Source: Amphiscolops sp. MND2022 (lineage: Eukaryota). Taken from it: 64,000 nt of DNA. The notes under the pieces are model-generated. The model worked only from the letters and a program-made list of their open reading frames with translations. It was not told where the DNA came from and made no database searches. Below, one piece after another: positions 3,698 through 64,000 of this stretch. How positions within the stretch are numbered: position 1 is the stretch's first letter; the number at the start of each line of letters is the position of its first letter. Where the stretch lies: NCBI GenBank assembly GCA_964187785.1, contig OZ076409.1, positions 42,534,001 to 42,598,000 of the forward strand, in the 5' to 3' direction. A program made the position numbers and the translations under genes.

Positions 3698-4444
3698 TGT
3701 AACGATAAGCGCCGGCGCTTGAACCGTAACTTAGAGTGGAGGAACTAGAACAGCGAATATAATCTGGGACTTAGATCTCCGCGGCCCTAGCTCATTTTCC
3801 CTCCGAAGGAGCCAGTCCCAAGTTGGGGGAACCGTCTTGTAAGAAACTCTCTGGCCTGGTCCCAGTCTGTAACTGCTAAAAGTAACCGGCATCTTGCATA
3901 ACTCAAGACCACTGCTCAACTAGCCTTTAAAAAGAGGGCTGAAAACAAGAGGAGGTTGAGCCATAGTATTGGAGAATCTGATAAAATCGACATATCCAAA
4001 TAGGTAAATATAGATGTTCAAGGGCAGCTCTCGAGCATATCTATCTACAGCAAAGGGAAATACAACAAAATTAACAATTTGAGTCATTTTGGTAGAAATT
4101 GACCTCGGCTCCCAGCGCTAGCGCTCGTCACCACACAGGACACTGCAGGGATACTCAGGCGAACATCTGGAACACGGGTTTCCGGTACTATAGTAGTGTC
4201 GATCTCTGGGGGATGGGCACAATACCGTGTTTTTCAGACGAAAAAATACGTCTTTTTTGTCGTTTCTTGCGTTCGCTCTTCGCTGGCGGTGATTTCTGAT
4301 TTTCTGGGGTGCTTTTTCTGGCAGGTACTTCATCTTGAGCATGTTTGAGTGCCACGTCAGATTTGAACGAATTTTTGGCAAAATTTCTGAACATGTCGAG
4401 TTGCAAAATCGGTGGACATTGCTGTACCAGAGCTTGCCGTTACA
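3698..4444 (-). repeat. 3' LTR (747 bp)
   Basis: Starts tgtaacgataagc and ends gcttgccgttaca (imperfect 13-bp terminal inverted repeat). About 16 differences counted by eye against the other LTR. Confidence 0.95.
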
Positions 4445-4461
4445 TCACTCCCTGGGCTTCT
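4445..4461 (-). promoter_or_regulatory. Polypurine tract
   Basis: Minus strand AGAAGCCCAGGGAGTGA directly precedes the TGTAACGG start of the 3' LTR. Confidence 0.6.
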
Positions 4462-8200: not shown

Positions 8201-9505
8201 CGATAGTGATTCGGTTCACTTCTTTCTGGTCAGCTTCTGTCGGGGGTGCTCTCCTTCTGATTGCACACATGTTCAAGTACAGACGTTCTGCGGCCATCCA
8301 AGTTCGCTTACTGTCGCTGGTTGCTACAGAGCCAGACACATCGTCGGATGGTGGTAGGAAGGCTGGCGGGCTGGCTTCCTCAATCGCTTCTGGCATATCC
8401 AAAGACATCTCGGCGGAACCCGTGCCCGAGGGCACGGAGCTTGCTTCAGGGCCGGCCTCCGCGTGCCATATTGCTCAATCGCCTCTCGCATGGTCAGTTG
8501 GGGCGCACCTCGGCCCAGGTGGCCAACACGATATGGGGGCCTGACTATTACTACACTCTTCATCTGGGGTTGCTGAGGCACATCTGCACGCTTGTCCGGA
8601 GGAAGACGACTGGTTGGACTTTCCGTCACCGAGCCAGTGGGGGCAGAGGCGGCACTCTCTCCCGTTACTCGCTTCCGTCCAGCTTCTTCACGTGGGCCAG
8701 TCGCGGTACTGCCACCTGGAGCAGCCGTGGTACTACTGCTGGGTCCAGCTATGGTCTCGGTGTCCATGGATGCTGTTTCGGCTAGAGTGGTGGGAGTTTC
8801 GGAGCCCAAGGGCTGAGCGGCGGCTTGCAAATAGTTAGCCAACCCCGGAATCCTTTGTTCTACTGCCCGAACAAAGTCGGATGAGTTGGGATAATTGGCC
8901 ACGGCTTGCAGTGCCACTATCACTGCCTGTTCGCCAGTGCTTCGCCCAATGAGATTCAGGTTTGGCACAGGTGGTACCCGGGACCCCGAGGGCTCCCGAT
9001 CAGAGACTGGTTGAGTGGTTGGAGGAATCTGCTGAGTTCCGTATGGTGCTCCAAAAGCAGGCGAGCCAGAATAAGTTGGCGTCATCGACACTGAATTCGG
9101 TGCTACAATTGGCGGCAACGAGGGAACATTGGCAGGCATCATTCGCAAGGATGCCTCTTGCTCAAATCTGGTACCTTGGCTGGGGCCGTATACCGCAGTG
9201 GATCGTTCGTCTAGGAAATGATGGGTAAGGTCGTAACCATCCCAGGCTCCGTTGGTACATGTCAGGGCGCGGCGGTAGCCAGCTACCTCAGTTACAATTG
9301 AGAGTGACACGCCTGGCAGCGTTTGCATGGTGTCAAGCTGAGTAAGTAGTGCTGCCACACCAGCGATGGCCACTGGCGGAAGGCCATTTCGCTACCTGTC
9401 CTCTACAAATTGGGCCTGATTGACCCTCTGCGCTCGCGCAGATTCCTGAGGCTTTGCACTACTAGGCCCTGTTGCAGGCACGGAGTTGCTTGGGCAGTAG
9501 GCCAT
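5216..9505 (-). pseudogene. Cargo ORF2, reconstructed ~1,430 aa, with an SGNH/GDSL-esterase-like domain (~7950-7400); joins listed ORFs 8324-9373, 5940-8435, 5833-6024 and 5365-5805
   Basis: ATG at 9505. In-frame stops at 9392-9394 (TAG) and 5833-5835 (TGA). Single-base frameshifts near 8470, 6040 (G5 run) and 5403 (G5 run) link the pieces into one frame ending TGA at 5216. SGNH-like blocks: YCVAVDS, VLTMPLSRF, RVIFANLRD, LFVSPPG, GDLRPDALSY. Confidence 0.7.
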
Positions 9506-9517
9506 TAATTCATAGGT

Positions 9518-9538
9518 CTAAAAAGGATAACTGTTAGG
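9518..9538 (-). promoter_or_regulatory. Putative 3' splice acceptor upstream of ORF2
   Basis: Minus strand cCTAACagttatcctttttAG|acctatgaattaATG: branch-point-like CTAAC, pyrimidine tract and AG, with an open frame into ATG 9505. Confidence 0.5.
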
Positions 9539-9777
9539 CTTACGCGGTGAGTGTTGGTGGGAGCTTAAGGCTCGTCACCCAGTTACAGTGATGCAACATC
9601 GGCTCCTTACGGGAACCGTAACGAACTCAAATCTAACTAACTTAACTAAAACGAAAACATTTGAGGGAGTAACATAACAAAGAATCATTTTGGCGGCAAG
9701 AGTGTTCAAGACTCTTCCGGGGATACTACAATTAGGCAATGGTAAAGGGGGGAAAGGGTTGGATCTAAGTGACAAGG

Positions 9778-11766
9778 CTATTCCAGCCCTATACTCAATA
9801 TTGACGCATACACGCGGCTGTGCAAAACGACATGGATACCAGTACCCTCGAACATGTTCGCTAGGGCATAGTACAGATTGACCAACGAGAAGGTAGGTCT
9901 CTCGGGGTCCAGAATGGGCAAATGGATCCGTGCGGATCCCTTGTCCATTGAGCGCTGTAATAGGTGCGTCATGCAGCGCAAACAGTCGTCGGTCAGCAGC
10001 GGCGCACGCTGGTTTGCTCGTACTATCAGCAGGTGAACACTTTGGTTGGGGTTTGGATTAACATCACGGGGGATTGTGAGCATCTCGCCCACCTTAGGCT
10101 GTAAGGAGAATACTTTTTCTATGCCACATTCTCGCAGCACGTATCGCAAGGCGGCGGAGTTAGTTTTCAGGTCAGCGGGGCATGCTAATACGATATCGCC
10201 TTCTACTTGCAACAAGTCAGTTTCGTCGTACGAGACATGTTCGGCTGAATTTGGATATGGGGCTTCCGGGTAAACAATTTCTCGTCCGGGTCCATTGTCG
10301 GAGGGGAGGCACTCGCGAGGCGCGCGTCCTTGAATCGCAGCCAGGTCTTGCCATACCGAGCGGGGCATCGCTCGATTGTCACTGCCGGCTTTGACCCATG
10401 TATCCAGAGTCCCCAGGGCGGCTTTTGGGAACAGAGGGACCTCGAATGTGTGAGTCCACTCATCTAGCAGTCGAATTCTGGGATAGGTGGTGAAGCAGGT
10501 GATGATCAGTTCCAACCACCATGCAAATTTCACCTTGCCCCGATACCAGTCTATGATATGGAAGCAAAGTATCAAGTCCGTAGTGGTCAGGGTCCTAAGA
10601 CTCTCTAAACAGGACAGCAGGTGCAGCGGTTCTACGATTGTCTCCACTCGTGGAGCAGTAACCAGCAACCACCAATGAGGAGCAGGACTGTATACTCCAC
10701 CCGGTTCCATTTGCACTCCGTACTTGTCACACAGCAGGTCAGCAGTGATGCACCGGGCCATTTGCACGGGTTCCCTTTCAAAATTGGATGGTCCAAACGC
10801 AATGTTGTTGGGCACGGGGGGCATCACGGTGGGCAAGGTAAACTCCAGGCCCTTCTCATCACTAGTCCACTCCTTAAACCGGGGGCAAGGAGCTTTCTCT
10901 ACTCCAGGTAATGATAGCTTCTCAAGGATAGCGTCCACGGGGTGATTTCCAGATCGTTCCACGGCGGAGTAGGTTTTCTCGGCCCGCACTGTGAGGCGGT
11001 GCACTAGTTTTTCTCCCTCTTCCGGAGGAATTCCCCGGCCCCCAGTGGGAACCCTCCGGTTCTCTTTCACAGCTAACAAGCAGACACAGTCTCGCAGCCC
11101 GCAGGTTCCGCATTTGTAGCGCGGCTGTCGCTTACTTCTCAGTTGATATCTTGGAGCTTCGGATTCTTCTGCGGATTTTGGGTTTTCGGTCTCGGCCTGG
11201 GTTGCTGTTTCGGCTGGGGCCTCGGTTTCAACGTTCGTGGTTGATTCTTTCTTCCTCGTTTTTGCCTTTGCTCGGACTAGCCGTTTCTTCTGCGCCTTGG
11301 GCGGTCTCCCCCTCCTGTGCTTTCCGTAGGCACAAACTCGAGTGATCCCTCGAGCGAGTCCTGACCCTTGTGGTCTCGAATAATTCGCGTTTTCCACATA
11401 GGTGAGGTCTTGGTCCACAGCGACTTGCAAGCGCGAATTCGTTTCTTCGCTCAGGGGTGCTCGAGAGCACCCTTCCTCGGCTACAGGCTCGTTAGTTACG
11501 TTTGAGTTGGGCCACTCTTCTTCTGCCTCGTTGGCTCTTTCGCGGCATGTCTCGTTGACCCATTGCTCAGTGCGGCGGGAGCTTCCAGAAGTGACTGAAC
11601 CATCGGAGGGGGGAGCCATGGCGGCCAATTCCTCCTTGCGTTGTTGTTCGATAGTAACTTCGTCAGACATTTCGTCTGAAAAATGCGAACCGTCCATCGA
11701 GGATTCATGTGTTGCCCAAGACTGCGAGCTCAGGTCGGACTTCGCAAGACCTCGCATGGCTATCAT
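9778..11766 (-). CDS. Cargo ORF1, 662 aa: acidic N-terminus, AT-hook (RRGRPPK), CxxC-x4-CxC cluster, two tandem TARG1/OARD1-like macrodomains (~10809-10465 and ~10239-9820)
   Basis: Intact ORF. VSYDETDLL..DIVLACPADLK..KVGEMLTI..VHLLIVR..RIHLPIL..MFEGTGIHVVLH and IAFGPSNF..MARCITADL..WWLLVTA..LLSCLESL..CFTTYPRIRLL each track the TARG1 pattern (ITYVKGDLF..LAHCISED..IYYLITK..LSMPRIG..VFEATDIKITVY). Confidence 0.75.
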   Translation of the reverse strand: MIAMRGLAKSDLSSQSWATHESSMDGSHFSDEMSDEVTIEQQRKEELAAMAPPSDGSVTSGSSRRTEQWVNETCRERANEAEEEWPNSNVTNEPVAEEGCSRAPLSEETNSRLQVAVDQDLTYVENANYSRPQGSGLARGITRVCAYGKHRRGRPPKAQKKRLVRAKAKTRKKESTTNVETEAPAETATQAETENPKSAEESEAPRYQLRSKRQPRYKCGTCGLRDCVCLLAVKENRRVPTGGRGIPPEEGEKLVHRLTVRAEKTYSAVERSGNHPVDAILEKLSLPGVEKAPCPRFKEWTSDEKGLEFTLPTVMPPVPNNIAFGPSNFEREPVQMARCITADLLCDKYGVQMEPGGVYSPAPHWWLLVTAPRVETIVEPLHLLSCLESLRTLTTTDLILCFHIIDWYRGKVKFAWWLELIITCFTTYPRIRLLDEWTHTFEVPLFPKAALGTLDTWVKAGSDNRAMPRSVWQDLAAIQGRAPRECLPSDNGPGREIVYPEAPYPNSAEHVSYDETDLLQVEGDIVLACPADLKTNSAALRYVLRECGIEKVFSLQPKVGEMLTIPRDVNPNPNQSVHLLIVRANQRAPLLTDDCLRCMTHLLQRSMDKGSARIHLPILDPERPTFSLVNLYYALANMFEGTGIHVVLHSRVYASILSIGLE

Positions 11767-14254
11767 GCACTATATCAGTGGCCAAACGAGCACTAGTAAC
11801 TCAGACGCCGCCCCTGGTTGGATTTCAGAGAGTACGGGGGCCGCTCAGTCACTATTAGCTCTCTATTCGTTTCGGTGAGGACTTAAGAAAATTGTGGTTG
11901 GCTATGTCCTCTATTTTCCGAAATGCGTTCTAGGGGTTGTAGGCTGCTCAAATTCGCACAGCGCTTTCTCACTAGCACACTGGGCCAGAAAATCAACCTG
12001 GTTTAGGGCAGAAAGTCTCCGGTCACTCACAGGAACAATTTCAAGGAATTTTTGGATTTTCCAAGAATCGCACAACAAGACTCAAGAGGCTCGTGTGTGC
12101 GCTGGAAGCGCTGTATCAAGCCCAAAATTGACCAGCAGATCTTAGGTTCACGTAGGTTTACGAAAACGACTGCAGTTTTGAGCTGCGCCCCTTCTACACA
12201 ATTTCACCTAGGTACAGACGTGCGGTACCACTATGTGCCGAAATACACTGTTTTTCACGTCTTTTTCAGGATTGCGGTCCACTGGAAAGAGCTAGCAAGC
12301 TCAAATTTTCTGCAGCAACGCAGGAACTGGCACAGGTTGCGATGGTGAGCTGCAATATAGCCCACCCGTCAGCTAAGGTGCCCGGGTTACTTGGAAAAAT
12401 CAAGAAAAAACTGCCTTTTTGCGTACTTTTCTGGGCTCCACGTTTTTCCTATTTTCTCGACAAGTATAACACAGATCGGCACCAAACTTGGTAGTCCATG
12501 CCAGTGGGCACCTACAATGCCACTGATATGGTCGACTTGAAGCGCGGGCGCTTATTTGAGGTTTCGACCTGTTATGGACGTTACGCACGAAAAAACACTG
12601 TTTTTGATGACTTTTTCCACAAATTGACCAAGAGGATCACATCAGAAAGTGATACGGCGGGCAAAATGGGACCAACGTGTTGCCCCACTATCTTTCGCAC
12701 TGGGATAAACCCTCAATTGGTTGTGCCCGTTAGGTATGAGGCACTGACAGTCCAGCAGTTTTGGATTTTTTCGGTCCTTTTATGCTTTTCTGAAGTCGAA
12801 ACGTCAGAGAGCTTTTCTCGAGTTTGGTGACCGATACGCTCACCAAATTTTCGGCACTAACGTTAATTTTTGTGGTGATTATGAAACAGCAACCACTTTT
12901 TGGCTAGGGTTCGGAATTGAGTGACCCGACCCTAGTCTGGAGACAGTCCGGTTTAGTGGAAAATTGACCAAATTCAGTGCGTTTTTCCAGTTTTCTCAAC
13001 ACTGAACGGGAATTTTTACACACGGTTTTCACCACCACGCGTTATTTTTATCACAGAAACAGAAAAAAAGAGCGTTCGGAGCCGCTCTGTTCAATTAGAC
13101 TTCGCTCCCAAGACTTTCAGACAATGCACTTTCTATGCCTGAAAACGCCTTAAATCACAGGTTTTTTTACACCGTGTCAGCCCCGGGCTGCCTGAATCCG
13201 CTACAAAAGTTGCAGTTAGTGTCCTGTGGGTTAGTTGCGCTTGCAAAAACAACGTACACTGCTTTTCCATGCTTCTACACAAGTGTACGCCTGTGCTTTT
13301 GGGTGCCTTTTAGGCCAAATTTCCAATTTTTTGCAATTTTCTGGTACTAAATCGGCACTTTTATCACAACCAAAGGTCAGAATACTGCCTCTCGTGCCTT
13401 GTACCAGCTTTCTCGAGCCTTGTAGCTGCTTTTCACAACACTTTTCGCAAAGTTTTCCTGGTTCCACTGAGCACGAGTGCTCGAAACCAAGAAAAACACC
13501 AAAAAAACGCAAAAGTGAGGTTTTTTCGCTAGAGTGCCATCTTTTTCGCAGAAAAGCACTTCATAGGGTGTCGTTACATTTGCGATAAAACGTCACTGAC
13601 CTGCACCAACGATTCCCCGTCGAAAAAGGCGCATTTTCAAAGTTTTTCCCAACCATGAGCCATTTGAGCGACACGTCTGGTCACAGGGGGTGCATCTTCT
13701 CCACGCTTTTTCTCCACATCTAGACCAGACAAAGACACGCGGTTTGGACCATTAGCACCGTCTGCTGTTGCACTTGCTGTCCACCAAAAACCATACCTCT
13801 AGGACGTCTCCACGGGAAATGGGAGTAGAAAGTAGACAACACACAAATTGACTCTTCCCTCGCCTCGCTGGCTCATGGCCAATCATCCACCAGTTACCTT
13901 CTTGCATGGCATAAAATGGCTGAAAATAGCTCGCAAAACCTGTTAAACACCAGTAGCGACGTGCTACTGTCTTCTGTACCTGCAAAAAGATACCCGCTGA
14001 TGGGTACATAACACATCACACAAAAATAGCGATTTTCTTCTAAAACACCTAAAAATGCCATTTTCACACCTGAAAACGTGATTTTTTCGGGTTTTCTCTA
14101 GTTCAACGCTTCTCCCAGTTCCAGTAGGTTGTCACACGACTAAAAAAGGGCAAAACTCTGCTTCTCTCTCCTTTTCCAGAGTCGAAACGGGCTTGGCGCT
14201 GATCACCAGGGGGCCAGATCTTTTAAAAACCGCTCGGGAAAGCTTCCCAAGACG

Positions 14255-14272
14255 ATCCCTCTGTGGTCGCCA
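14255..14272 (-). promoter_or_regulatory. Primer-binding site, tRNA-Arg-like, 15 nt from the LTR
   Basis: Minus strand reads TGGCGACCACAGAGGGAT, resembling the complement of a tRNA-Arg 3' end (...UCCCnnnGUGGUCG-CCA). Spacer TAGAACCTCATTTTT lies between LTR and PBS. Confidence 0.8.
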
Positions 14273-14287
14273 AAAAATGAGGTTCTA

Positions 14288-15033
14288 TGTAACGATAAGC
14301 GCCGGCGCTTGAACCGTAACTTAGAGTGGAGGAACTAGAACAGCGAATATAATCTGGGACTTAGATCTCCGCGGCCCTAGCTCATTTTCCCTCCGAAGGA
14401 GCCAGTCCCAAGTTGGGGGAACAGTCTTGTAAGAAACACTCTGGCCTGGTCCCAGTCTGTAACTGCTAAAAGTAACAGGCATCTTGCATAACTCAAGACC
14501 ACTGCTCAACTAGCCTTTAAAAAAGGGCTGAAAACAAGAGGAGGTTGAGCCATAGTATTGGAGAATCTGATAAAATCGACATATCCAAATAGGTAAATAT
14601 AGATGTTCAAGGGCAGCTCTCGAGCATATCAATCTACAGCAAAGGGAAATACAACAAATTTAACAGCTTGAGTCATTTTGGTAGAAATTGATTTCGGCTC
14701 CCAGCGCTAGCGCTCGTCACCACACAGGACACTGCAGGGATACTCAGGCGAACATCTGGAACACGGGTTTCCGGTACGATAGTAGTGTCGATCTCTGGGG
14801 GATGGGCACAATACCGTGTTTTTCAGACAAAAAAATACGTCTTTTTTGTCGTTTCTTGCGTTCGCTCTTCGCGGGCGGCGATTTCTGATTTTCTGGGTTG
14901 CTTTTTCTGGCAGGTACTTCATCTTGAGCATGTTTGAGTGCCACGTCAGATTTGAACGAATTTTTGGCAAAATTTCTGAACATGTCGAGTTGCAAAATCG
15001 GTGGATATTGCTGTACCAGAGCTTGCCGTTACA
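14288..15033 (-). repeat. 5' LTR (746 bp)
   Basis: Direct repeat of 3698-4444 with TG...CA ends. Confidence 0.95.
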
Positions 15034-21000: not shown

Positions 21001-21109
21001 CAAAAACGTTTTTCCTCTTTTTCCGCGTAACATACAACACCGGGAGACACTAAAAGGTCCCCTTTCAGTTTTTTCGGCATTGTGAGACTTTTTACCGAAA
21101 CAATTATCT
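14714..21109. repeat. Near-identical ~2.2-kb tandem triplication (14714-16685, 16686-18898, 18899-21109)
   Basis: Each added unit = copy of internal 12350-12601 + LTR part 14714-15033 + flank 15034-16685; duplicated ORFs in the track confirm it. Confidence 0.95.
15034..15131 (-). mobile_element. HINE 5' part continuing after the LTR element
   Basis: agaagttaca...gtgtggccgttagtgg...gcttatgaaatctgtcac matches the uninterrupted copy at 47381-47450 and ends in subTIR-like aaaagcgccgaataaaa. Confidence 0.75.
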
Positions 21110-31800: not shown

Positions 31801-34800
31801 TTGGCGTGCTTTGATATGTTTATAGCAGTATTTGCTAGCCCGAGAACTAGTTTTTTTGGAAATTTAAACGCTATTCCAATGTCACCCTGGAAACAAAAGT
31901 TTACACTATTTTTGGCATTGTTTTCAAGTGCTAGTTTGGCGGAGGTCTTTAGAGAGTCAGAAAGGCGCCCGTTATTAATAGCAATCAACGACAACGACCT
32001 GTTGGAGAGTATTTGTCGAAGCACCCCTGGAGGCAAATTGGATCTCTGGCGATGGGCGCCTCTCTCGAGCGCTTCACCCAATTCTGCAGGTTCCTCCATC
32101 TCTGCTAACGCTTTAAGCAACCGATCACAGCTTGCCGTTACATGAGAACCCATTTTTTTGTGACTACAGAGGGATTATTTCGGATTACTCCCCTATTATA
32201 AGGACTTGAACTTTCTGAACCCCTGGTATTGGAAGCCAAAACCGATTTGACTCGGTCGGGAGATGTTTAACCGGATTTTGTTTTCAATGTTTCCAGATGT
32301 TACGATGGTGTTTGCTGGTATCTTGCTGTAAGTTCGGGGGCTTTCAGTGAATACTTATGATTTTACTGAATACGTATGGTAGAGCTTTGCTAAAGGTGTT
32401 TGTTGACGGTAATCGTCAAAGTTTGCAGGGTTTCCATTAGCAAGTCTTCTTTTTAGAAGCGTAGTTGTCTGCGTCCCTATTGGTTTTAACAGTTTTTTTT
32501 CTGGTACTTGAGCCTGTGTACGAGATGCCAAATTGATGGATAAGCCATGTTCCACTCGACCAAACCATGAGCAGAAACGTATGTCCCTGACTCTCCCCTG
32601 CCTTTTCTCGTGCACCTATTATTGCATCAGTTTTCATTGGAAAAGGTCGCTTTATAGTGCAAAAGTTGCAAAAACGTCTTTTTTGAGGCATAAGCAACAG
32701 CAGCTGCAAAAAGCAGTTAAAAAAGCACAAAAGTTTTAGGGCTCTGATATAGGAAGTAACATCTACCAGGAAAGCCGTTGGAATCTATTTTTGGACACAT
32801 TTGGTATAAAAAAACCTGTTTTTTACGAAAACGGCAAAAATTACGATGAAATGCCACTGCAAGAGTGATGTAATGGCCTCTTACGTGCTACTCGTAGTTT
32901 GGCGCACTCTCCATTGTACCAAACTAAGATTTAACGTTTGTAACGTCATCCTAGTGATAACGGGTCAAAAATTTTGATTTTTTGCCGGTTTCAGGAGTGT
33001 AACAGCACATCATTGAAGTCTCTGGGGCACTCAGTGCTTTCGTAATCTGGGAACTGTATGGTCCTTTTTTTTCTGTTTTTGTAGTAAAAAGTAACGCGTG
33101 GGAGAGGAAGCTGCGCGTAAAAATTCACAATCAGCGCGGAGAAAAAGGTGGAAACGTACTGAAAACTGAAATTTTGAGTGAAACCGGACTTACTAAAAAT
33201 CAGTTCGCTGAACCTATCATGATTGTGGTTGCGTTTTCGCAACTAATGAAAAAATATCCTTCAGCGACGAAAATTCGTCGAACGTATTGTTCACGGGGGT
33301 TGAGATAAACTCTTTTTCGTTTCGACTCGAAAGCGTTGAAAAAGCCGAAAAAGTCTAAACCTGTAAGACCGATAGCGCTTCGGTGTCTACGAGCATGGTT
33401 GATTAGTGGTTAATTCGTGTACTGTGGTAGGTGAGGTTACGCAGTGACCCTATTCCGCCCGTCGGGACCTTTTTAGAACGACCCTATTAGGAAATTGGTG
33501 AAACAAATAATAAAAATTACCAGTTTTTCGGAAGTGGTATCAGTACCTGGTCGGAACCTCTTGTAAGCCATCGTACCTCAAGTGAATGGACCATCGTACC
33601 TTCGTTGTAGGCAGGTGCTTGCTGACAATTACTACCCAGTTCGATGTCAATCGGTACTGTCAGAGCTGAGAAATTAAAGAAAACAGGCCGCACATAAATG
33701 CACGCAGAAAAGCATTTCTTTTGGAATTGTCTGAACACTTTAGTGCAAGAGTGGTCCCACTTTGCTGCCCACCATCGTACTTTCTGCTAATTATTGTATT
33801 GTTGCCGAAACGATGAGCTTTCAACATTCTCACAGTGGACCGGAAAATTGGATGACAGGTGAATTACAGTTTTTATTGGAACACAGTGACACGGAACGTC
33901 TGTACTGCACTGAAATTATGCGTAGTTGCCTTAGTCCAATTCAGTGATCAATCCCGTGTACCTTGGTATACGTGGGGGTGTTTGGATGATTTTGAGACTA
34001 ACCCTACGTTTGGAGTGTGAGCACAAACCACGTACGATTTTGTCGAGTGGATCTGAAAAACGCAATAAACGCAAAAAAAGACTCTGATTTGTGACTGGAG
34101 ACTAATACCCCAATTCAGGATTTAGTTTCTGATCAGTAAAGGTAGTGAAATACTGTATACTTCGCAGCTTGCTAAAAAACTGGATCGAATTTCGACACAT
34201 TTTGTACTTGCATAGTCCTTGTTTCAGTTTAAGGTTTCCATGATAGGAAAACTGGGAAAGTGGTACGAAGCCAGCTCTACGTGCTGCAAATCTGTGGAAC
34301 ACCCTGTTGTGAAATCCTAGTCGCGAACCCATTGCTGTACGGGCAAATTTTCGTTAGTATCGAGTGGGCTGTCTCTGTGGATCGAAGGGTTCTGTTCCCT
34401 ATAGTTGTGATATCCTGTGTTTTGTAACGAGTGGGACCATCTCTTGGCAATACCGGCGCACCTTATTGAAGAATTGGATTTTTCTGCTTTAAGCTATTGT
34501 TATCAGTGTCAGTTGGTGATCCGTTTTTGAATAAGTGAGCTCGGTAGCTCAGCACTGTAGACGAAAGTCGTCGATTTCACGTGAAAAATAGTGTCAGTTG
34601 AAACAAGGTGATACAGCGCGCCTGTACCGGATCTGAAACTAGTCCAAAAGTCTGAGACCCAATCAACAACAACTGCAGGCTGCCTGACAGTACGTCACGG
34701 TAAGATCGTGTGACCACATTTGAGCCCAATCCTTCGTTTACAGCGTTTGTACGAGTCACTTGAGTTTCTCGAAGAAAGTTCGAAAGTTCGGAAAATCAGT

Positions 34801-35993
34801 GAAAAAGACTCTTACTTGTAGCTGGAGGCATTTATCTGCTTCGCAAAGGTACTCCTCAAACCTGACAAAAACCGTGACTGACAAACTGTGTCGTTTCGTG
34901 CCAGGTACCACTGATAGAATTGAATTTGACTGCGCTGAGACGTGCATTTTGACAAAAACCCCGAAATCCACCAGTAAAACGAACAACATAAAACCTTGAT
35001 ACTTTCGCTGTACAGAAGACAGAGACAAAAAGCTTTCATTGTCAAACTGAAGGAATCTTGTGGGTCTTGGGTTCAAACGAGACAAATCCTGCAATTCAAA
35101 AAATGCCGGCAGAGGTCATAAGTTTTTAACTCCACTGGGACATTGAAAATGGATGCTGATAAAGATGAAATCAGGAGCTTTAAGTGTCTGTGGCTCACTT
35201 TGGACTGAACAATTCGAGGAGAACAAGTTTAGGCGTTTCCCTATGAGCTCAAGCAGGGTTTTGAATATCCAAGGGCCACCGAGGAATCTGAGGCAACCAA
35301 AATTACAAGTTTGTGAGGAATGCAACCACCTTGCGAAAAAAATAGCCGGATTGCCCGAGTGTGAAATTCTTTCTGATCCCCTTGTGTCTCGTTTTGGTCT
35401 TATTATGTTAGCATAAGCACCGAACATTACGTCGGCTCTGCAGAGAACACTTTTGGGTATTCACCACACACCGAAGTTCATTGAGGTGAATAGTTCGAGT
35501 GAAGCATATGGGAGCTATCTGAAGTTGAAATGAAACGATCGAAGATTCTTGAGCGCCTCTGCTTCTTGTTCAAGCGCATTACAACCAATCAATGAACTGG
35601 CGGAGACTCTAGAAAACGAATCCCAGATGGCCGACCGAGCGATGAAATAGGAGGATCTGAACGAGAAAGAGGTCGAGAGACTGTTTCACAGTGGTCTATG
35701 ATTTTTCAGATCCGATGATAGATAACTCGCGAGTTGCCGAGCCAGAGAAAGAGACAAGAGCTTCCGCCACAATTCATACTCGTCGAGATGATTATCTATC
35801 CACTGAGCAGTAATGGATATTACCGAAGCAAAGGGCTGGCAAGTGACTGGACAGACGGATGAAATGAAAAATGTCCTAGAACAGTCCGACCAATCGCATA
35901 CAAGGGTTCGAAGAACGGAACCATTGATGAATGGTTGCTGGTGATAAAACAGCATATGGAGCGAGTTTGTCATTACGATACACATCCCTGTCA

Positions 35994-36019
35994 CGAACTA
36001 GCAGGATCCTGCTAGTTCG
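35994..36019. repeat. Perfect 26-bp palindrome
   Basis: cgaactagcaggatcctgctagttcg. Confidence 0.9.
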
Positions 36020-37399
36020 ATTTTTGTCCAATAAGAGCGCAAATAGTTTTTTTAGAAGTTTTCCACTTGATTCAATTTATCAATGATTCGATTTTTTTCA
36101 CCTGTTGACAAAGCCTGGGCGATGTGAAATGACTTAGGAGATGAAGCTCGAAGTTACATAGTCAACAAACTGACGTTCAAACGGGATACTGGAGTCCACA
36201 ACCTTTGACCATGGTAGCCGAACGTTACTGTGTGTACACTTAAAACTGGCCTCGGAGCAACAAATACGCAAGGATGTGACTTTGGAAAACATTAAGCGGG
36301 AGTTAACGAGCAATACCGCTTCCGAAAGGGTCTCCTCCCTCAGCTCTGCTAAAACTGATTATACCGAAGACAGCACAAGCACAGCAAACTCGCCAGTTCC
36401 AGTGCACGCTAACATGAATGGCGTGGATATGATGTTCGATGCCAGCGTGGTTGTAGAAGTGTTGCTTCAAGAAGTGTGTCTAGGGCCACATGAACTAGTC
36501 TGCTACAGCATCAGCAAACAGGAGACCCGATTGGATGAACGCACATCGCTCGTGATGTACTTTGCAGTGCCAGAGGCAAACACTTTTTCCAGTGAGAGGA
36601 ACTGTCGACACGGGGTCTGGCTTATCAATTATGACATTTTTAGGCCTTTAATCGTGTAGCTTTTCAGACAATCCTAGCGCTGCAAGCACACCGAGTTGAC
36701 TTCTATGCCACCAAGGGAAAAACCAATCTCAAGTTTTGGAATAGCGGAGCGTGTGAGCTTCTAACTCGATGGATAAGAACTCGGAACTAATTTCGTGGTC
36801 GTCGATGATCTATATGAATTGGATGCTTTCATGCTTGATAGGTATTTCCACGAGCACACTAGCATATAACGTGCTGGTAGATCTGACCCTCCATGAAACT
36901 TTCGTGCGAGCCACAGCTAAGCCTGAAACGAGTGACGAAACTTTATCTTGCACAGTAGTCTAGGGTCAAGACGTGGTGCTCCAGCCCTAAGAACGTGCCG
37001 TTCTATGAGCCAAGGTGGTCACTTCGGACTTGGAAGCTGTCACTTTCAGGAGTGTTGTGAATTACTTTGCAACTGGGAACCAACTGCTGAAGATAGCAGT
37101 TTCCGTGGAAGACACTATAACCACAATTCCGTCCACACGACCTTGTTCGAAATTGATCTGAGTTCCCAATCAAAGTATTCATTGTCATCGGAGATCGAGT
37201 ATATTTTCATTTTGGACCCATCGGAGGAAAAATTTTCAGAGTGTGATAATCAGCATGCAGACTTACCCTGTTCTATTGGCGCCTATTCCAGAACCCGAAT
37301 CTCAGGAGATACGAAAGTTAAGGGGACAAATTGCCTCAACACCTCTCTGGATAAGATCCTAATATATTTTGGCTATCTAATCACGAGGCACAAAGCAGA

Positions 37400-37950
37400 C
37401 ATCGGCCGCTGTAAAATTGGCAAACGTCCAATGGAGGTGGGACCTAGGGCTGCCACTCATCGAGAAGAAGTCAGGCACATGTTGCAAGAGAAAGCAGAGC
37501 GCATCAATCAAGAAGTGCGCAATCTCCTACCATTCGGCATGATCCAATCTTCGCTGTCACCTTGAGGGAGTGTTAATGTGTTGATCAAAACAAATGGGGA
37601 GTTGCGCTTCTGTTGCGACTTCCGCCCCTCAATGCACTGACCATAAACGACGAATATCTCGTCCCGCGAAATGATGAAAACCTTTCACGCTTGAGTAGCG
37701 CGACGATATGCGCCAGTATTTAGTTGGCCTGGGCGATCTGGCAAAAACCAGTACGCAAGGCAGATAGGCAGAACACAGCATTCGCTTGTGAGCTGGGTTT
37801 GTTTGAATGGCAACAGATTCTCTTTAAGATGTGCAGCGCTTTAGCTATTTTCCAGAGGGCAATAACGCGAGCGCTACAGAAATTTGTGAACCAGGAAGGC
37901 AGCATGGTGATGGCCCACACTGACAATAATTTCATCAATACCGTAACGGT
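37400..37950 (+). pseudogene. Ty3/gypsy reverse transcriptase remnant (resumes ~38740-38930 after a HINE-like insert)
   Basis: GMIQSSLSP*, ELRFCCDFRP, LAWAIWQ..DRQNTAFACELGLFEW..FKMCSALAIFQRAI. Confidence 0.85.
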
Positions 37951-38999
37951 GGACCATGGTGGCCAGTTGGGCCATTTTAATGCAACCTGGTTGCTTTTGG
38001 TCGTTTTTTGACAGCTTTTTCCCGCAAAGTCCCGTTTTGGTCGCATATTTTACGAACATGATTTTGTTTGTTCCATCGTGTATTTATACTTTCAGCTCAT
38101 TGGTGTTCAACAGCATGCTTCGTTTATTGAACTTTTGCTTTGATATACATGATGCGTGATAGCTACAGGAGAACGCAGTATGGCAGAATGTGAAATGTGA
38201 AATGGATTGAAGCGTTGTAAATGTTTTGCGACGCCTTTTCAAACGGCGCTTTTCTAGAGAAAAGAGTCCACTTTAGTCATGGCATTTCGTCAGTGGTTTT
38301 TTGATTCTCAATTTTTTTCGATACACACCAAAACAGTTCTAACCAAAAAATTCTACATATTTTGAAGAAATCGCCAAAATTTTCCTGTTGGCGCAAGGAA
38401 CTGAACCAAAATGATTTTCCGTGTAACTTACATTACCGGTCACCTTTCAATTCGGCATTGCGAGATTTTTTTTCCAAAAAAAGTTTTCCCCCAAAGGGTC
38501 CTTTTCAAATTTTACGGAGTTTTGCGACAGAATTGATGTTGAAACATCTCAAAGGGAAACATCTCTCCCGCCTTTTCAGTTTCGTTTCGGCATTGTAAGA
38601 CACTTTTTCATTCTTTTCTCTCATTAAATGATCCCTAATTCACCAATATTATGACATTTTGAAGTCTGAAAAAACGTAAATTTTATGATTTTAATTTGGT
38701 TGCAATTTTGTTTGAAGAAACTGGCCACCCGGCCGTGGAAGTTTACATGATCCGAAGTCGCAGAGAAGCTTTTGAATGTTTACGCGAAGGTGGCTTCAAA
38801 GTGAGTGTTACTAAGTGAGACTTTATCAAGTCGGAAACAAATACCGGAACGTGTGGTCGCTTCCGAAGGTATCAAACCTGATTCTTGGGCTGTGTCTAAA
38901 CTGCGCGATTGGGAAGTATCCAGGAACAAACGGAACTGCGAAGTATGGCGCTGTCAAGTATCCGCCACAACAGCAATTTTTGTACGAACACCCATGCAT

Positions 39000-39600
39000 G
39001 ATTGTGACGCCTCAACTGTACCAGTATGAAGTTCTTTCCAAAGGTCATGATGCGAGTGGACATCAGGGTATTGCCCGGTTGTGGAACGGATCCAAGAACA
39101 ACACTCCCGGATTTGGTCCCTAATTTTTTCTCGTTGTTTGACGAAGCGGTGACTTGCATGCATGCAGGCTATGATCCTAAAACCAACTCCAGGTTGCTGC
39201 TGAAATGGTTTTCCAGATATGGCACTCCCACCCGCATGCAGTTAAGTTGAACAACGCACCCAAATAACGGCAGAGGTATCCAATGAGTTCATGAAGGCAT
39301 TGCAGGTCACAAAAATAAACTCCATAGCGGGTCACCCGCGCACACAAGGCCTTGCGGGGGGTGAACGACAAAAACGGACATTGGTCACCCTAGTAGGGGT
39401 ATTCCGCTGTCGTCGCATGAGAGCTTGGGACCAGCATTTGGATGAAGGCATGAGAGCGTGTAACTCAAAGCGCCCAATCACGACTTAGTTTTCATCTAAT
39501 ATGCTGACCCGAGGGCCCAAAAAAGCGATTCTTCTCATTTATCTTCATCCCAAGTTCACCCCCCAGATTGCTTGAATTGCATGGAGCATATGTGGGGCCG
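39000..39600 (+). pseudogene. Integrase remnant (HHCC part and core); its GPY/F-region tail resumes at ~41538-41800
   Basis: GHDASGHQGIAR, WFSRYGTP, HPRTQGL..ERQKRTL, WDQHLD...CNS; after the LINE, QQEIHVLIRGNTHQ and LMKYWHGQDKVV. Confidence 0.8.
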
Positions 39601-41537
39601 CCTTTTCCAAAAGATGCAAAACAGAAATAGTTTCTTTGAAGAATTCACTTGGGGATATCATAACTGACCAAAAGAAGATTGTAAATTTACTCAACTACCG
39701 CTTCGCAAAACTCGGTGAGTCATCGGATCAATACAAAAAACGTTTGTTGAAGAAATTGAAACGAGTCAAAGCGAACATGACATTCATATTTTAACCCATT
39801 ACCCTACTTACTTGCAAAACATTTGTTAAAGAATTGACATATAAAACCTTTTGGGTCCGTCAAATAACCCGACTTAGGCTCTGAAAGATTCCATTAGTGA
39901 GATAGCTGGGCCTCTCTGCTTTCTCATAAACGCATCTTTGAATGAAGATAAGTTTCCAAGTGAAATTAAACAAGCTCATGTTTGCCCAATCTTCAAGAAG
40001 GGTGACACTTAAGATCCAAACAACTATGGACCTATTTCTATTACAGCAACTTTATCCAAGGTTTCCGAAAAATTCATTCGTGAACAAATTCCCAACTATA
40101 TTGATAACAACAAACTGTTTTCCCAGGTACAATTTGGTTTCAGAAAAAAATATATCCACGACGGAAGCACTGGTTTTCACAACTGAAAAAAGAAGAACAG
40201 AAATTGATAACAATTACTCTGTGGCTGCAGCTTTTATGGATCTATCAAAAGCGTTCGTTTCTTTTTCACATGAAACACACTCTCTGAAAAAGCTGAAAAC
40301 ACTTCGTTTTGGCCTAAACGCAGTTTCATTGATAAAAAGTGTTTTCACACGACGGGCTCAAAGAGTAGTTTTGTCCACATCCAAAGCGGACTGGATTAAT
40401 TCATATCAAGGCGTCCCACAAGGTGCTGTTCTCGGCCCGTTGCTTTTCAACTTTTATGTCAATAGTATGCAGAACATAATGCCAGAAAGTTCAAATTTGG
40501 TGCAGTACGCTGATGATACGTTGGTCTTTGTTGCGGAAAGTTGTACCGATACCGGCATTACCAATCTTGAAAGAATTTTAGAAAAACTAATTGATTACTT
40601 CGTATCACATCGACTCAACATAAACGCCAAAAAAACAGAGTTTATTGTCTTCTGTAAACCATCAAAAACTTCTTCGATAAAAATTGTCCAGTTACAAGTT
40701 CACAGTCATTCTATCAAACAAAAAGAGTGTGTAAAATATCTTGTTGTGCAATTGGATCGGAACCTCAACTATCAGAACGAAGTGAAATACATTCAACGGA
40801 AAATGGCCTGCGGCATCAAAACAATTTACTGTGTTCGCGATTTTTTGCCAACGACAACCAGAATACTGTTTCTAAATGCCCTTGTCATCAGCCACTTACA
40901 TTACTCTTCTATACACTTGAGTGGCATTTCTCGCAGCCTCCTTTTGACACTGGAAAAATAACTAAATTGGGGAATCAAAGCATGCTTTAATAGATACAAA
41001 ATGGATTCAGCGCACGATCTTAAGGTACACTGTCGAATTTCATCGGTTCGTCATCTGCTGGACTTGAAATCTGTTTTATTTTTCTAGAAACGGAAATACA
41101 ATCTTTCGCCCGCTTTTTCACGGCTTCAGATCGATACTGCAAATCTGAAAACACATGAAACATTAAATTGAACATAATAGTTTGCCATTAGTGAGCAGCT
41201 GAAAAACAGCCGTTTCAAGAGAGTAGTACCATTGTGGAACGCGTTGCCTGAAAAACTGGAATTGGGAAATCAACCGTATGAAAATGTAAAGAAGAGGTTG
41301 AAAACGTTTTTTAATGAGAAATTTGTTTATGACATCGATAGACTTCAGTATAGTCAGAAATCTCTGAGTGAATATCGTTTTAAGTCGTCAAGTTTTAATG
41401 CTCAAAATTTGTTTTTATACAATATTTTGTGTTGTCCATTTTTATAATAATACGGTTTTACACTGCCCTCCATATATTTGTTTACAATTTAGATATTTTA
41501 TATGAAGGAATACAGTGTTTTCTTTTTTTCTCTCTCT
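39600..41537 (+). mobile_element. 5'-truncated LINE (CR1/L2-group) RT fragment inserted in the gypsy integrase
   Basis: PIFKKGD..NYGPIS, QFGFR, AFMDLSKAF, GVPQGAVLGPLLF and QYADDT; frameshifted; ends in a T/CT-rich tail. Confidence 0.9.
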
Positions 41538-42491
41538 GCAGCAAGAGATTCATGTTTTGATTCGTGGAAATACGCATCAGGTGCAACAACGTCAGACGCT
41601 GAAATTTGATCGCGTCATTGGTGCATTTGCATACAATGTAGGAGGCTCCGTTTGGATGTTCTGCTGCTTGGAACCTCAAAAGTGTTAGCCGAACTTGATG
41701 AAATATTGGCATGGGCAGGACAAAGTTGTCCGTACACTACAGGATGGAGTGTGTTTGTCCCGGACTCAGGGCAAAAATGGATTTCGAGCGGCCGAAATCT
41801 TATCATAGTGGACATACGGTGCTTGTTGCACTTCCCGCGGGAAGCTCGAGGTAGTCGTGGTAATGGAAACTGCGCCTAAGCACTCTGCTGAGAAGATCCT
41901 GGATGGCTGCTGGCAACGATCATTTCGCGAGGTGGAAGCAGCATTCGTATCTCTACCATCAAGGAAACGCCACTGGCTGGACAAGAGGTTCCACTACCGG
42001 CAGTTAGACTATTCTACGCTCGATCCAGAAGGTGCGTACTCTGAAGATTTGCTGCACAATGCACGAGACTATTCCTATGATAAACTTCTTGCACTACTCG
42101 AAAGTTCAATGCGTCGATATGAATAACCTCTGTGATCTGAGCTTGCCAATGACGTTCAGGTGCCATTGTTCTCTGAACAGGACGTAATCCCGCAGGTACT
42201 TTAATCATATTCCCATTGCAACATCAGAAGCTGAAAAATTACTAGCGGGTACATCTGCTTCTCTTTTGACAAGCCCTTCTTTGATGGATGTGCCAAACAC
42301 TATTCCTAAAACACCGAAATGCAGCTCAAACCTCCAAGCTGCTGGATCCCAGAACACTGGAGTATCAAGCATCAACGAGCTAGCAGCTCAGAACTACGTT
42401 CCCGGCATACGTCACAGGGACAGGCCGCGAGCTGCTCTAACTCGTTGCTGGATATGAGCAACACTTTTTCCTAGTATCAGGACACGCGCTC

Positions 42492-43830
42492 ATGCGCGCA
42501 AAAGGTCGCAGCGGAAATCCTCGAGGACGCCCTCATCGGCGGCCCAGAGGACACTTTACCATTTCTTTACAGCACGTGAAATCGACACACAGCCTTCGAT
42601 TACTTTGGAATCTGATTCTGATTGGCCCAGCTGTACTTCCGAAAGCTCCTATGAATCCAAAGCCTCAACCTCTCATCCACACTGCTAAACATCTCGTAGT
42701 CATCCGTGCAGAGAAGACATATATCGGACTCGAAAGAGAAAGGATCTTCACCGTAGACGTCATTGCGGAAAAGATATCAAAGTCCAAGATTGCTGAAGAT
42801 CCTTGTCCTCAATTCAAGGAAAGAACGAGCAGCAATCTCCGAGGATTGGAATTCACTTTTGTCGTCACAGTGCCTCATGTTACTCCTAGCATTGTATTTG
42901 GACCTTTTTTATACTGAGAGGGAAACCATCCAAATGGTCCTCGGCATCACAGTTGACCGCCTATCTGACAAGGACGGCATCACACTACGGCCTGGTGAAG
43001 TGTATCGCCCAGCCCAATTTTGGTGGTTACTGTTAACGGCCTAACATACTCACTGACAGCCTGCGCAGTATTAGCGGACTGTGGCTACTGTTTCCAGGTC
43101 ATTGACATTTACCGTTGAAAAGTCCAATAAAACTTTTTTCGCCAATTTTTCTCGTCTCAGTTTTTTGAATGATTGGACCCATTCCTTCGACGAAGCTGTA
43201 ACGACCCACACTGCACTTGATAACCTGGAAGCATTGATCAAGAGCAAATATGCATAATCACTCCCTTTCAAGGTCCGTATGGCTGGATCTGGCTGCTATT
43301 CGAAGACGGAACCTTATCTACCCGACTGGAGAAAAAGGACCCGGACGTCAAATTGTGTTTTCTGATGCCTCACGACCTAACTTGTTCGATTATATTGTAT
43401 ACGACTAAACTGGCATCTTGCATGTGCAGGGCTATGCAATTTTCGGTCCTGAAGGCTTTAATACTAAGTCTCCTGCCTTGCGCTGCATTCTTCCCGAGTG
43501 TGACGACAAAATATTCAAATTTCGCCCAAAAGTCCCAACTATTACAACACGAACATCTTTCTTGAACAATCAAGTAGGTCATCCACCTACTGATAACACG
43601 ACCTCCCAGCGTACTCCCCAAAATATTGAAGATTTCTTCCTATGCTTGAAGCCTTCGAGAGCATGATTGTTGTCAAACGAAACCTTGATTTTCATTTTTC
43701 CATAGTAGACGCTGAGCACCCACTTTGCAGCTTGCAAATTTCTACTATAGTGTGATGAATGTTTTTGCAGGAACTGCTATCACAGTGTTTCTGCATGATC
43801 GCGTCTATGTCGCAATTGACAGTATTGGAC
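42492..43830 (+). pseudogene. Decayed homolog of cargo ORF1 (AT-hook plus tandem macrodomains)
   Basis: PRGRP; VIRAEKTY..DPCPQFKE..GLEFT..IVFGP; IQMVLGITVDRLSDKDG..PGEVYRPAQFWWLLLTA; TKSPALRCILPEC..FKFRPKV are colinear with ORF1. Confidence 0.9.
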
Positions 43831-44059
43831 AATTTCTTGGCATCACCTTATTTCATTGTTTCATTTTTGGTTGACGAATTTTAACAAAACGTGCCCGACT
43901 TTTACAGTGGCATGTTTTTTTTTGTCTTTTTTTTCGTCAGACAATAGAATGTATGCGTAGGGGACACTTTTCACAGAACTATTTAACTACTGGACCGGCA
44001 AACGGAAAAGTTAGTGCAAAGGGTCCCCCTTTCATTTACTCCCTTTTTAACGTAAGATG

Positions 44060-46670: not shown

Positions 46671-48000
46671 ACAAGCCTGGAACGGCCCATGTCGGCGCCA
46701 TATCTAAGGCTCAAAAATAGCAAAAGGACTTCAAAGTGTTAAAGTATTCTCTTCTAAAGGACCCCAAAAACCCAAATGTTGGACCGGATTGGCGTGCCAG
46801 GGGAACGCTTTGACATTTTTTATCCCTTCTGTCACAAATCATCAAAAAAATTGAAGGGGGACCCTTTAATGAAAAAAAAATGAAAAAAAGTCTCACAATT
46901 CCGAGAAAAAACTGAAAGGGGGACCTTTTGGTCTTTTTTAACTATCTGCAGCAAAACTCTAGAAAAAACGAAGGCGAAACCTTTGCGGAAAGTTTTTTGT
47001 CTGAAAGAAGTCGCACTATGTCGAAATAATGAAAAAAATGAGAAAAAATTTAACGGAAATTTTTCTCGAATTTTTTTTTGAAGTATCCGGTAAGTTGCAT
47101 AGTGCCAAAAATGTAAAAGGGGGACCCTTTGGGATTTTTCGAACGTCCATTCTGTTGCAAAAAATCTAAAAAAATTGAAGGGAGGACCCTTTGGAGACAT
47201 TAAAGAAATTTGCGAAAAAAGTCTCACAAAGCCGAAATTACATGCACAAAAAATTTGGTCCAGGGTGAGGCTCGAACCCAGGTCTTTCTGCTTGGCAGAC
47301 ATCAAAAACTATCCTAATTACCCTCCATGCTAAATAGGGTAATATCCTAAATACCCTCCTATCCTAAATACCCTCCATGTAGAAGTTACACGTGTGGCAG
47401 TTAGTGGACGCAGCGTATAAAGCTTATGAAATCTGTCACTTCGTTGGTCTTAAAAAAAACAAGCCGGGAACGGCCCAAGTCGGCGCCATATCTAAGGCTC
47501 AAAAATAGCAAAAGGACTTCAAAGTGTCAAGTATTCTCTTCTACAGTACCCGCGTGAGGAAAAAATTGAAAAAAAAATCCGATTTTTTTTCGAATTTATT
47601 TTTTAGCCTCCGGTAAGCCGCATAGTGGCGAAAAATGTAAAAGAGGACCCTTTGGGAGTTTTTGAACATCCATTCTTTTGCAAAACAGTAAAAAACCGAA
47701 AAAAAACCTGCACAAAAAATTTTTTGGTCAAGGGCGGGACTTGCACCACGTCCTTCTGCTTGGCAGACCTCAAAAAAGCCGTAACCTCTATGTCAAGTGC
47801 CAGTATGAATAGTGTGGCATAGCTTGGTGTTAGTGCAAGTCAGCTTATAAAGCTTGTAAAATCTGTCCGTTCGTTGGACTTGAAAAAAAAGAAAAAAAAG
47901 TCACTACTATAGTCTGCGTTTTTCTACGAAAAGCGCCTACTAAAAAGAAAAGAAAAGTCACTGCTATAGTCTGCGTTTTCTACGAAAAGCGCCGACTAAA
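46671..48000 (-). mobile_element. Two head-to-tail HINE-like copies (46671-47458, 47459-48000); terminal ~57 bp duplicated
   Basis: acaagcc(t/g)ggaacggccca.gtcggcgccatatctaaggctc at 46671 and 47459; subTIR gcgccgact ending at 47997. Confidence 0.8.
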
Positions 48001-62178: not shown

Positions 62179-64000
62179 CTAGTTTATCAAAATTGCGTTG
62201 TTAGTGTTTCTCAAGGCGTTTCGCACTGTTGTAATCTCGTATATGAGGAAGTCTGGATATGTTTTCGGAGTTGGGTTCTCCCGTAGCCCGTAGCTACTCT
62301 GGTTTTTTCTAGACAGTCTAGAATTAATCCTATCCTCATCCTCAGTTCCTGCTTGCGTCCTCTGGTTTGCTTCTTTGGGTTGTTCGGTCCTGAGAGGTAA
62401 TATCATCTCACTCTCATTGCGAGGGAGTGGCAGCATAATTTCTTCTTGCAATCCAAAGCGAACACTAAGCGGTCTAAAATCATTAATCTCAACCTCAACG
62501 CGGGATTTGTCTGTTCTGGTGAGTAAATCGGGCATTGTCTCGATTTGTCTATCTTGTCTTGGTTCTATATGTCTGGTGACGGTTTCTTCTGAAGGTTCAT
62601 TTTCGTTGAAGTCTTGGTCTAAATTGGTCTCTCCGTGTTGATATATTTTGTCGGTTCTCGGAAAATTCGAGTCAAACATGTCCGTATCTTCAACCCTTTC
62701 AATATCTGGGTAAATTTGTTTGGACACACTTATGTCATCGATACTAAACTCCGGTTTGAAAGTTTGAAAAGTCTCAGACGCATGAGACGCACTGAGTTTT
62801 GTGTTTCCCTATTTTCCGGATGATGTACTTACTATCGGACAGCACTTTCATCACCTTGTACGGTCCTTTCCAGTGGAATGTTTTAAACTCTTCCTTGCTA
62901 CTCTGAGATTCCTACTTCAGGTCTAAGAGGAACACAAATTAGTTTACTTCCAGTGGTTGTGCTCCGGCTTTCCTATCAAAGTACATTTTGTACTTGTGAT
63001 AGGCAGAGATTATGTGGTCTGAATTTTCTCGGAATACCAAGTTCATTTTATCCAGAATCTCGTTTACGTCCTTGCACTTAGTCTCAGATTGTTTCTGTGA
63101 ACTTCTGAACCGTAGATCGAGCGAGTTATATGGGACCCATCCGTGGAATATCTCCGTCGGAGAACACTTCAATGAATCATGGTATGTTGTATTATGGGCC
63201 GTAATTGCTATATCGACATTGCGGTCCCATTGCGGTCTATCAGCTTTAAACTGTGATTAAGGATTTTCTTCAGCTTAGCGTGACTCCTCTCAACCATGCC
63301 TATTGTTTGAGCGTGCTTTATTGTCGCATGTGAGATGTGTATGTCAGCCGCCTTCGCAAGAGCAGTCAGTAGTTGATCAGTGAACGCTGTTTTTTAATCC
63401 GTCAGGATGTGCTTCAGCACATAGGCGTATCTCGTAAATTCAACAATAGTCCTTTAACTAGCCAGATTGCGTGTCTGGTCGTCTTAACGGTACTGTGAAC
63501 AAATATCTGGAAAGAACGTCAACTGCCGTTAGAATGTGCGTAAACCCGTTTGACGCAGGGAGTAGACCTACTATGTCTATTTCAAACATGTCTTCTGGTC
63601 CGTCGCAGGGGTCGCAGATTTTCTATAACGGTGGACGTAACTGGGACTCATTTAAGCTTTTCTATTTCATACAAATATCACATCCGTCTATCACCTTTTG
63701 GAATTGGGTTGCTAAACCTGGCGAGTAATATCTCTGACGTAATTCATGCAGCATTTTCTTTGAACCGGGTGTCTTTGTACTGGGCTGTTATGGCGTACCC
63801 TTATGATTTCTATTACACAGTTTGAAGGAACAACTTGCTGTTCATGAGACCCCAGGCCTGTGTGATTAAAGCACTGCCTGTACAGGACACCATTTACAAC
63901 TTGAAGTCTTTTACGGTTTTTGTAGAGTTTCTGAAAAAACTGGTCTTGCTTGTTAACTGGGTGTTGCAAAATTCCGAACCCTTCCAACTCTCTACTCTTT
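62179..64000 (-). pseudogene. Ty3/gypsy integrase remnant (runs off the window end)
   Basis: NGVLYR..IIRVRHNSPVQRHP, FEIDIVGLLPASNGFTHILTAVDVLSRY, IGMVERSH, HNTTYHDSLKCSPTEIFHG, WKGPYKV, tail SYGLRENP. Confidence 0.92.

Follow-up and report, generated by a model that had tools for sequence, protein, structure and literature searches.

The polyproteins of a Ty3/gypsy-type family, of which two related LTR elements lie in the window (the whole 64-kb stretch of DNA that was analysed), end in a module with two predicted macrodomains behind the integrase. We give a probability of about 0.95 to this architecture, a single Gag-Pol frame of ~3,000 aa that ends with integrase, a long linker, an RGRP motif, a Cys motif and two TARG1-like macrodomains. 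Judged by sequence comparison, the module extends Pol in the same frame, and it is an old family feature across three subfamilies.

Two related elements in the window

Element 1 is located on the minus strand (3698-15033), is without a pol gene and has four open frames. It has LTR features: TG...CA ends, and PBS-like and purine-rich stretches. Its main parts are as follows.

3698..4444, minus: 3' LTR, 97.9% identical to the other LTR
9778..11769, minus: ORF A, 663 codons, open
from 11697, minus: Gag N-terminus of ORF A, joined in frame to the RGRP region
11313-11302, minus: RGRP of ORF A
11112-11080, minus: Cys motif of ORF A
10815-10459, minus: macrodomain 1 of ORF A
10248-9814, minus: macrodomain 2 of ORF A
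14288..15033, minus: 5' LTR (blastn)

Element 2 is a decayed gag-pol element on the plus strand, starting from ~32130, and retains only the end of its 5' LTR.

32130..32175, plus: 5' LTR end and PBS-like stretch (blastn and pattern; 85% like the element 1 junction)
35884..38930, plus: decayed gag remnants, protease and RT (tblastn with P0001, P0003 and P0336)
38953..39566, plus: decayed integrase zinc finger and core
~39567..41529, plus: LINE-type insertion splitting the integrase (RT ORF 39942-40961, Pfam RVT_1 E 3e-23)
41530..41810, plus: integrase C-terminal region, with the GPY/F-equivalent at ~41713
41811..42518, plus: linker, acidic and Pro/Ser-rich, colinear with intact relatives
42519..42533, plus: PRGRP, an AT-hook-like basic motif
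42690..42878, plus: N-terminal part, folded subdomain flanking macrodomain 1
42879..43173, plus: macrodomain 1, TARG1-like, degenerate and decayed (mapped from ORF A 319-437; fold)
43350..43802 (start approximate), plus: macrodomain 2, TARG1-like, degenerate and decayed (ORF A 508-652; fold)

From Gag to the module end, element 2 gave 17 colinear HSPs with an intact relative (tblastn), and it is colinear with ORF A of the pol-less element 1. A Ty3/gypsy-type pol gene ends, in decayed form, at 41530-43835, with the integrase tail, the linker, PRGRP and two macrodomain-fold segments in this order. Its first part (41530-42198) matched the integrase C-terminus and linker of P0005 (48% over 239 columns), and 42690-43829 matched ORF A over four colinear HSPs that are 33-57% identical, with E 1e-26 and 1e-23. 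This agrees with the original prediction of an integrase tail with a GPY/F region at ~41700, followed by a decayed, colinear homolog of ORF A with PRGRP and two macrodomain segments. The module had also been placed "just after integrase"; the same strand and the colinearity are right, but ~1.1 kb lies between the integrase tail and macrodomain 1.

Element 2 is heavily damaged. Its RT is broken by a repeat at ~37970-38734, the RNase H region is deleted, and the integrase matches resume 12 residues downstream of the LINE insertion. The copy at 41530-43835 aligned with P0336 in six HSPs with five frame changes and 11 stops, so that it cannot by itself show the reading frame. The Cys motif of intact relatives is absent from element 2, where residues ~1186-1223 of P0005 had no match. 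The leader of ~2 kb between PBS and gag is alike in both elements (11960-14278, minus; 32136-34155, plus). Another, distant decayed gypsy-type integrase tail was present at 62804-63384 on the minus strand, 23-32% identical to the macrodomain-bearing family. The repeats present and the relatives with a known name suggest an animal host.

ORF A had been called an "ORF1", and this name should be given up. It starts with the Gag N-terminus of P0001 and then jumps to the RGRP region, and from its sequence it is an in-frame internal deletion product of the Gag-Pol polyprotein, not a separate gene.

Three more open frames of 355, 844 and 155 codons are located 3' of the module in element 1 (5365-9391, minus). 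None of them had an informative Pfam or PDB match, and no counterpart was found after element 2. ORF C was considered as an SGNH/GDSL relative and rejected, with just E 0.024 to P0262 and empty Pfam and PDB searches. P0262 itself carries a GDSL-like hydrolase region in frame past the integrase core (residues 1328-1469; Pfam E 9e-7, under the curated cut-off), which recalls the rotifer LTR elements with GDSL ORFs described in passages of PMC5408684.

The flanks of element 1 (3614-3697 and 15034-15116) both match one dispersed repeat (units 47257-47457 and 47726-47885), so the empty site is readable. The target duplication is apparently just 3 bases at this one clean site in the window, which is short for gypsy elements, where 4-6 is the norm. 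A B-box-like motif (3626-3635, minus) lies ~62 nt from the LTR at this single site; ARAGORN found no tRNA, and Rfam gave nothing near threshold. A 2.2-kb tandem array with copies 99% identical occupies 15034-21109 and consists of flank DNA, a 252-nt piece of the element 1 leader and 320 nt of its LTR.

The module in related Gag-Pol proteins

P0001 (3,113 aa) has Gag, protease, RT, RNase H, integrase and then the module in one protein (Pfam), and the Pol order protease, RT, RNase H, integrase was the same in P0001, P0003, P0181 and P0336 (Pfam). A search for long module-bearing proteins found five in 2,457 candidates, each of them with integrase, and a profile search gave 22 hits among 5,309, all 22 colinear with the Pol region of P0001. 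In an independent RT search the best 120 of 2,853 hits were examined. Among these, 73 had an RT identity of at least 75% to P0001, and 53 of the 73 had a tail of at least 700 aa past the integrase C-terminus; both macrodomains were present in 53/53, in one Gag/Pol frame. The other 20 included one protein with one domain, ten which end earlier and nine which stop before or without the integrase tail. One subfamily accounts, with near-identical copies, for most of these 53 intact proteins, which are therefore not independent; the units that count as independent are the three subfamilies. Between these, identity was 36-64% in the macrodomains, 68-89% in the integrase core and 28-48% in the linker.

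The intact tail past integrase is ~730-790 aa long and contains the two macrodomain folds. RGRP was found in 53/53 intact tails (net charge +15 to +21), and the Cys motif follows the pattern CxxCGxxxCxC. Pfam made no AT-hook call at RGRP; an RGRP core in a basic context is what we take to define an AT-hook. The motif could also be a nuclear localisation signal.

The module as a separate ORF was rejected, with the module in frame with Pol in all 53 close relatives with a full-length tail. A gene-model artefact was rejected as well: ORF A runs in one genomic frame from RGRP to its end, and the integrase-to-linker part aligns colinearly with the DNA of the window (405 residues of P0005, 1,153 nt), and no gap there is of intron size. 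The original prediction of a Pol extension in one frame was confirmed in these 53 proteins, and the claim that it is an old family feature was supported by the three subfamilies and by related macrodomains in four outer lineages; neither a separate module ORF nor an absence of the module from autonomous members was found.

The same best 120 of 2,853 RT hits also show how far the feature extends. There were 32 proteins at 55-65% RT identity, and 12 of them reach the integrase tail: five carry macrodomains after it and seven end within 315 aa. At 50% RT identity or below, a macrodomain was found in 0/15 relatives among these best 120.

Macrodomain folds, rebuilt pockets and history

Pfam called no Macro domain in ORF A, P0001-P0005 or any of the 86 members of the domain family. 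A single-sequence PDB search gave nothing, and macrodomain-1 profiles likewise. In the protein Atlas, macrodomain 2 had a lead at best, with Macro annotated on 22% of members (0.89), and macrodomain 1 no usable match. With the macrodomain 2 profile (86 sequences), human TARG1 was the top hit at E 0.007 (0.007-0.012 across searches).

The predicted structure of the module (mean pLDDT 79.8) matched TARG1 by Foldseek at E 1e-7. Macrodomain 2 (module residues 294-438) aligned with TARG1 at Z 17.1 and rmsd 2.3 over 137 residues (VIA-align), followed by DarG and Poa1p. When the first half of the module was folded alone (pLDDT 87.3), TARG1 was again top (Foldseek E 1e-5); macrodomain 1 (module 105-223) aligned with it at Z 12.1 and rmsd 2.9 over 116 residues, tied with two bacterial macrodomains. 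In these models both segments are a minimal macrodomain fold, closest to TARG1, DarG and Poa1p, and a folded subdomain lies on both sides of macrodomain 1. The likeness between macrodomains 1 and 2 is weak (probability 69%, E 4.5e-5). Their net charge is -1 to -9, and that of the intact type is +9. A metagenome scan gave 33 pattern matches, of which none was confirmed.

The pocket was tallied in 166 domains from 95 of 191 collected proteins of at least 600 aa, with TARG1 numbering taken from chain offsets and anchored on G43, K84, G123 and D125 (passages of PMC5928194, PMC7050489 and PMC8120803). The catalytic Lys84/Asp125 pair and the pocket glycines are replaced in the family, whose identity to the TARG1 class is 12-18%. 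Asp occupies the G121 position and Arg that of L124 (D-x-x-R) in 79/79 macrodomain-1 and 69/70 macrodomain-2 copies. The K84 position is Ala/Ser in macrodomain 1 and Arg in macrodomain 2, and the G123 position is Tyr/Phe/His in macrodomain 1 and Glu (68/70) or Lys in macrodomain 2. The first glycine loop is deleted in macrodomain 1 and altered in macrodomain 2.

According to passages of PMC5928194, the TARG1 mutants G123E and G43E have neither ADP-ribose binding nor catalysis left, and still bind RNA. Because the pocket residues are replaced and these mutants lose binding, canonical ADP-ribose binding by the family's macrodomains seems unlikely. SCO6735 of the ALC1 class, described in part of PMC8120803 as active without the catalytic pair, cautions against over-reading this loss. 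That the invariant columns include the rebuilt pocket loops speaks for a new ligand and against decay. A retained ability to read ADP-ribose or PAR, by which integration would be directed to damaged or PARylated chromatin, might also fit these invariant loops, the kept fold and the Asp found at the adenine contact in macrodomain 2 of all 12 long proteins that were aligned. This is very unlikely in view of the Glu or aromatic residue at the G123 position, the changes in the first glycine loop of both domains and the TARG1 mutants in PMC5928194 (as excerpted).

The outer lineages differ in these features. P0286/P0288 carry one macrodomain, and the equivalents of G43, K84, G121, G123 and D125 are present in 10/10 copies of this basal lineage; Pfam Macro scored 23.4 and 21.0 bits for P0286 and P0288 against a cut-off of 22, and P0307 of the same cluster matched the TARG1 sequence at E 2e-26. 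P0285, P0316 and P0317 have one degenerate macrodomain with D-x-x-R, and P0275 has two macrodomains. RGRP and the Cys motif were found in 0/6 outer-lineage tails. A common origin of the duplication in P0275 and in the family was looked into by way of the flanking subdomain, which scored no higher than shuffles. Past the integrase of P0314 (residues 2196-2328) there is a single, differently degenerate macro-like domain, with 27.5 bits by a local profile and no Pfam call.

All the macro-bearing lineages group as one clade (100/100) in an RT-RNase H tree built from 36 chosen rows, and the intact macrodomain type is on one side of its first split. The tree has a midpoint root and an outgroup of unclassified fish, frog and pseudoscorpion proteins; with such a root and so thin an outgroup, a single capture followed by degeneration is the simplest reading and not a proven order. 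The macrodomain tree has long branches and is not resolved. The relatives appear to lead step by step from a TARG1-like enzyme to a pseudo-enzyme in tandem. A host gene or a virus may have been the donor; similar folds are carried by invertebrate RNA viruses, and many viral proteins have such folds.

These viral folds, together with the complete residue set of the basal copies, might suggest a counter-defence: the domain would have been captured to strip ADP-ribose from element proteins or nucleic-acid ends, both modified substrates on which TARG1 acts (passages of PMC7050489), and the degenerate copies would serve as decoys, or bind a host factor of the PARP pathway or of silencing. It fits the intact P0286/P0288 lineage best, where a hydrolase-like domain without RGRP and Cys motifs fits it better than targeting. 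For the family here we consider it unlikely, with the pocket rebuilt in both domains and with added RGRP and Cys motifs that such a role does not need.

The module diverges faster than the integrase core between subfamilies, as would be expected if it were carried along behind Pol as a decaying passenger. The subfamilies and two outer lineages nevertheless retain frame, fold and D-x-x-R, and the module copies in the window differ at third codon positions in 126/211 codons and at second positions in 51/211, a contrast inflated by the choice of columns for local protein identity. A mere passenger is thus extremely improbable.

Possible role of the tail and comparison with known systems

Integrase tails decide the landing sites of retroelements, and captures of chromodomain, PHD and MBD have been described. 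From the sequences and the tree, we infer that a TARG1-type ADP-ribose hydrolase was taken up by an ancestor, at the C-terminus of its integrase. The branch described here would have lost the catalytic pair and the glycine loops and gained D-x-x-R in the pocket; the macrodomain would have been duplicated, and the RGRP and Cys motifs acquired. The tail, made with integrase, may stay attached to it and tether the integration complex: the RGRP patch would hold on to DNA, and the pseudo-macrodomains, neutral to acidic, would bind a chromatin protein of the host or another non-ADP-ribose ligand. Such tethering would bias where the element inserts. We put this function slightly below even odds; it is suggested by the position of the module, its conservation and the analogy with chromodomain, PHD and MBD captures (in excerpts of bioRxiv 2021.11.30.470311, PMC13524379 and PMC6673714).

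The linker between integrase and module is long, and that the tail is retained on integrase is what we infer. Alternatively, the protease might cut the module off, or the module might have a role outside integration, handling RNA or particles in the manner of the SARS-unique domain. PMC2674928 describes two macrodomains there which do not bind ADP-ribose and bind G-quadruplexes, RNA binding by TARG1 is independent of its pocket (PMC5928194, in part), and the module of element 1 is open and in frame with the Gag N-terminus without integrase. Such an in-frame deletion arises by chance in one of three cases, though; no further Gag/module fusion without RT was present among 357 collected proteins, and domains of -1 to -9, against +9 in the intact type, are poor for non-specific nucleic-acid binding. 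We regard this separate role as rather improbable.

Going beyond tethering, a TARG1-type domain on integrase might define a Ty3/gypsy clade, as the chromodomain does in chromoviruses; the basal form would be an ADP-ribose eraser, and the derived D-x-x-R form a reader of a new ligand that sets the integration site together with an AT-hook and a metal-binding motif. This wider proposal is doubtful. If it is true, retroelements would have a targeting module of a new class, and macrodomains a new specificity. The natural series from enzyme to tandem pseudo-enzyme makes each step assayable on small domains, and ~50 near-identical open copies mean that young insertions exist to map. A positive outcome would link ADP-ribosylation to retrotransposon control or targeting.

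Automated annotations list Poa1p-like macrodomains in retrotransposon polyproteins. In the papers searched, mostly open-access main texts, we found no report of a macrodomain at the integrase tail of a gypsy element, and the one related statement concerned macro domain ORFs of fish endogenous retroviruses (PMC4977317): "macro" does not occur in the main text of PMC6431247, PMC5408684 and PMC13524379, and PMC8672886 and bioRxiv 10.64898/2026.07.25.740670 gave nothing relevant by term. What seems new here is a gypsy element with a macrodomain captured on integrase; captured domains on integrase are already known in kind.

Chromoviruses and other Ty3/gypsy elements with a chromodomain have the same domain order, and their integrase likewise continues in frame into an additional domain of host type (excerpts of PMC13524379 and bioRxiv 2021.11.30.470311). 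There it is a chromodomain, and here an extension with two macrodomain folds. Chromo gave 0 hits at E up to 0.1 among 20 relatives scanned, so the likeness to chromoviruses is one of analogy, not of membership. TARG1 (OARD1, C6orf130), of the ALC1 class with DarG and Poa1p, is the top structural match of both domains, whereas the domain here has other residues in place of the catalytic pair and the loop glycines, occurs twice and is joined to Pol.

Teleost epsilon-like ERVs likewise have a macro domain in an LTR retroelement (Basta et al. 2009, via the review PMC4977317); by that review's short description, on which we base the comparison, these are additional Retroviridae ORFs. The SARS-unique domain of coronavirus nsp3 likewise has tandem macrodomains, which have lost ADP-ribose binding (PMC2674928); it belongs to an RNA virus, is a weak structural match (Z ~7.7) and has a basic nucleic-acid-binding surface, in contrast to the neutral-to-acidic domains here. 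In arthropods, CopiaMBD elements are LTR retrotransposons that took up a reader domain from the host, and a bias of insertion by this domain has been proposed (excerpts of PMC6673714). CopiaMBD is a Copia element with an active methyl-CpG reader, while the family described here is of gypsy type and carries an enzyme-derived domain with a rebuilt pocket.
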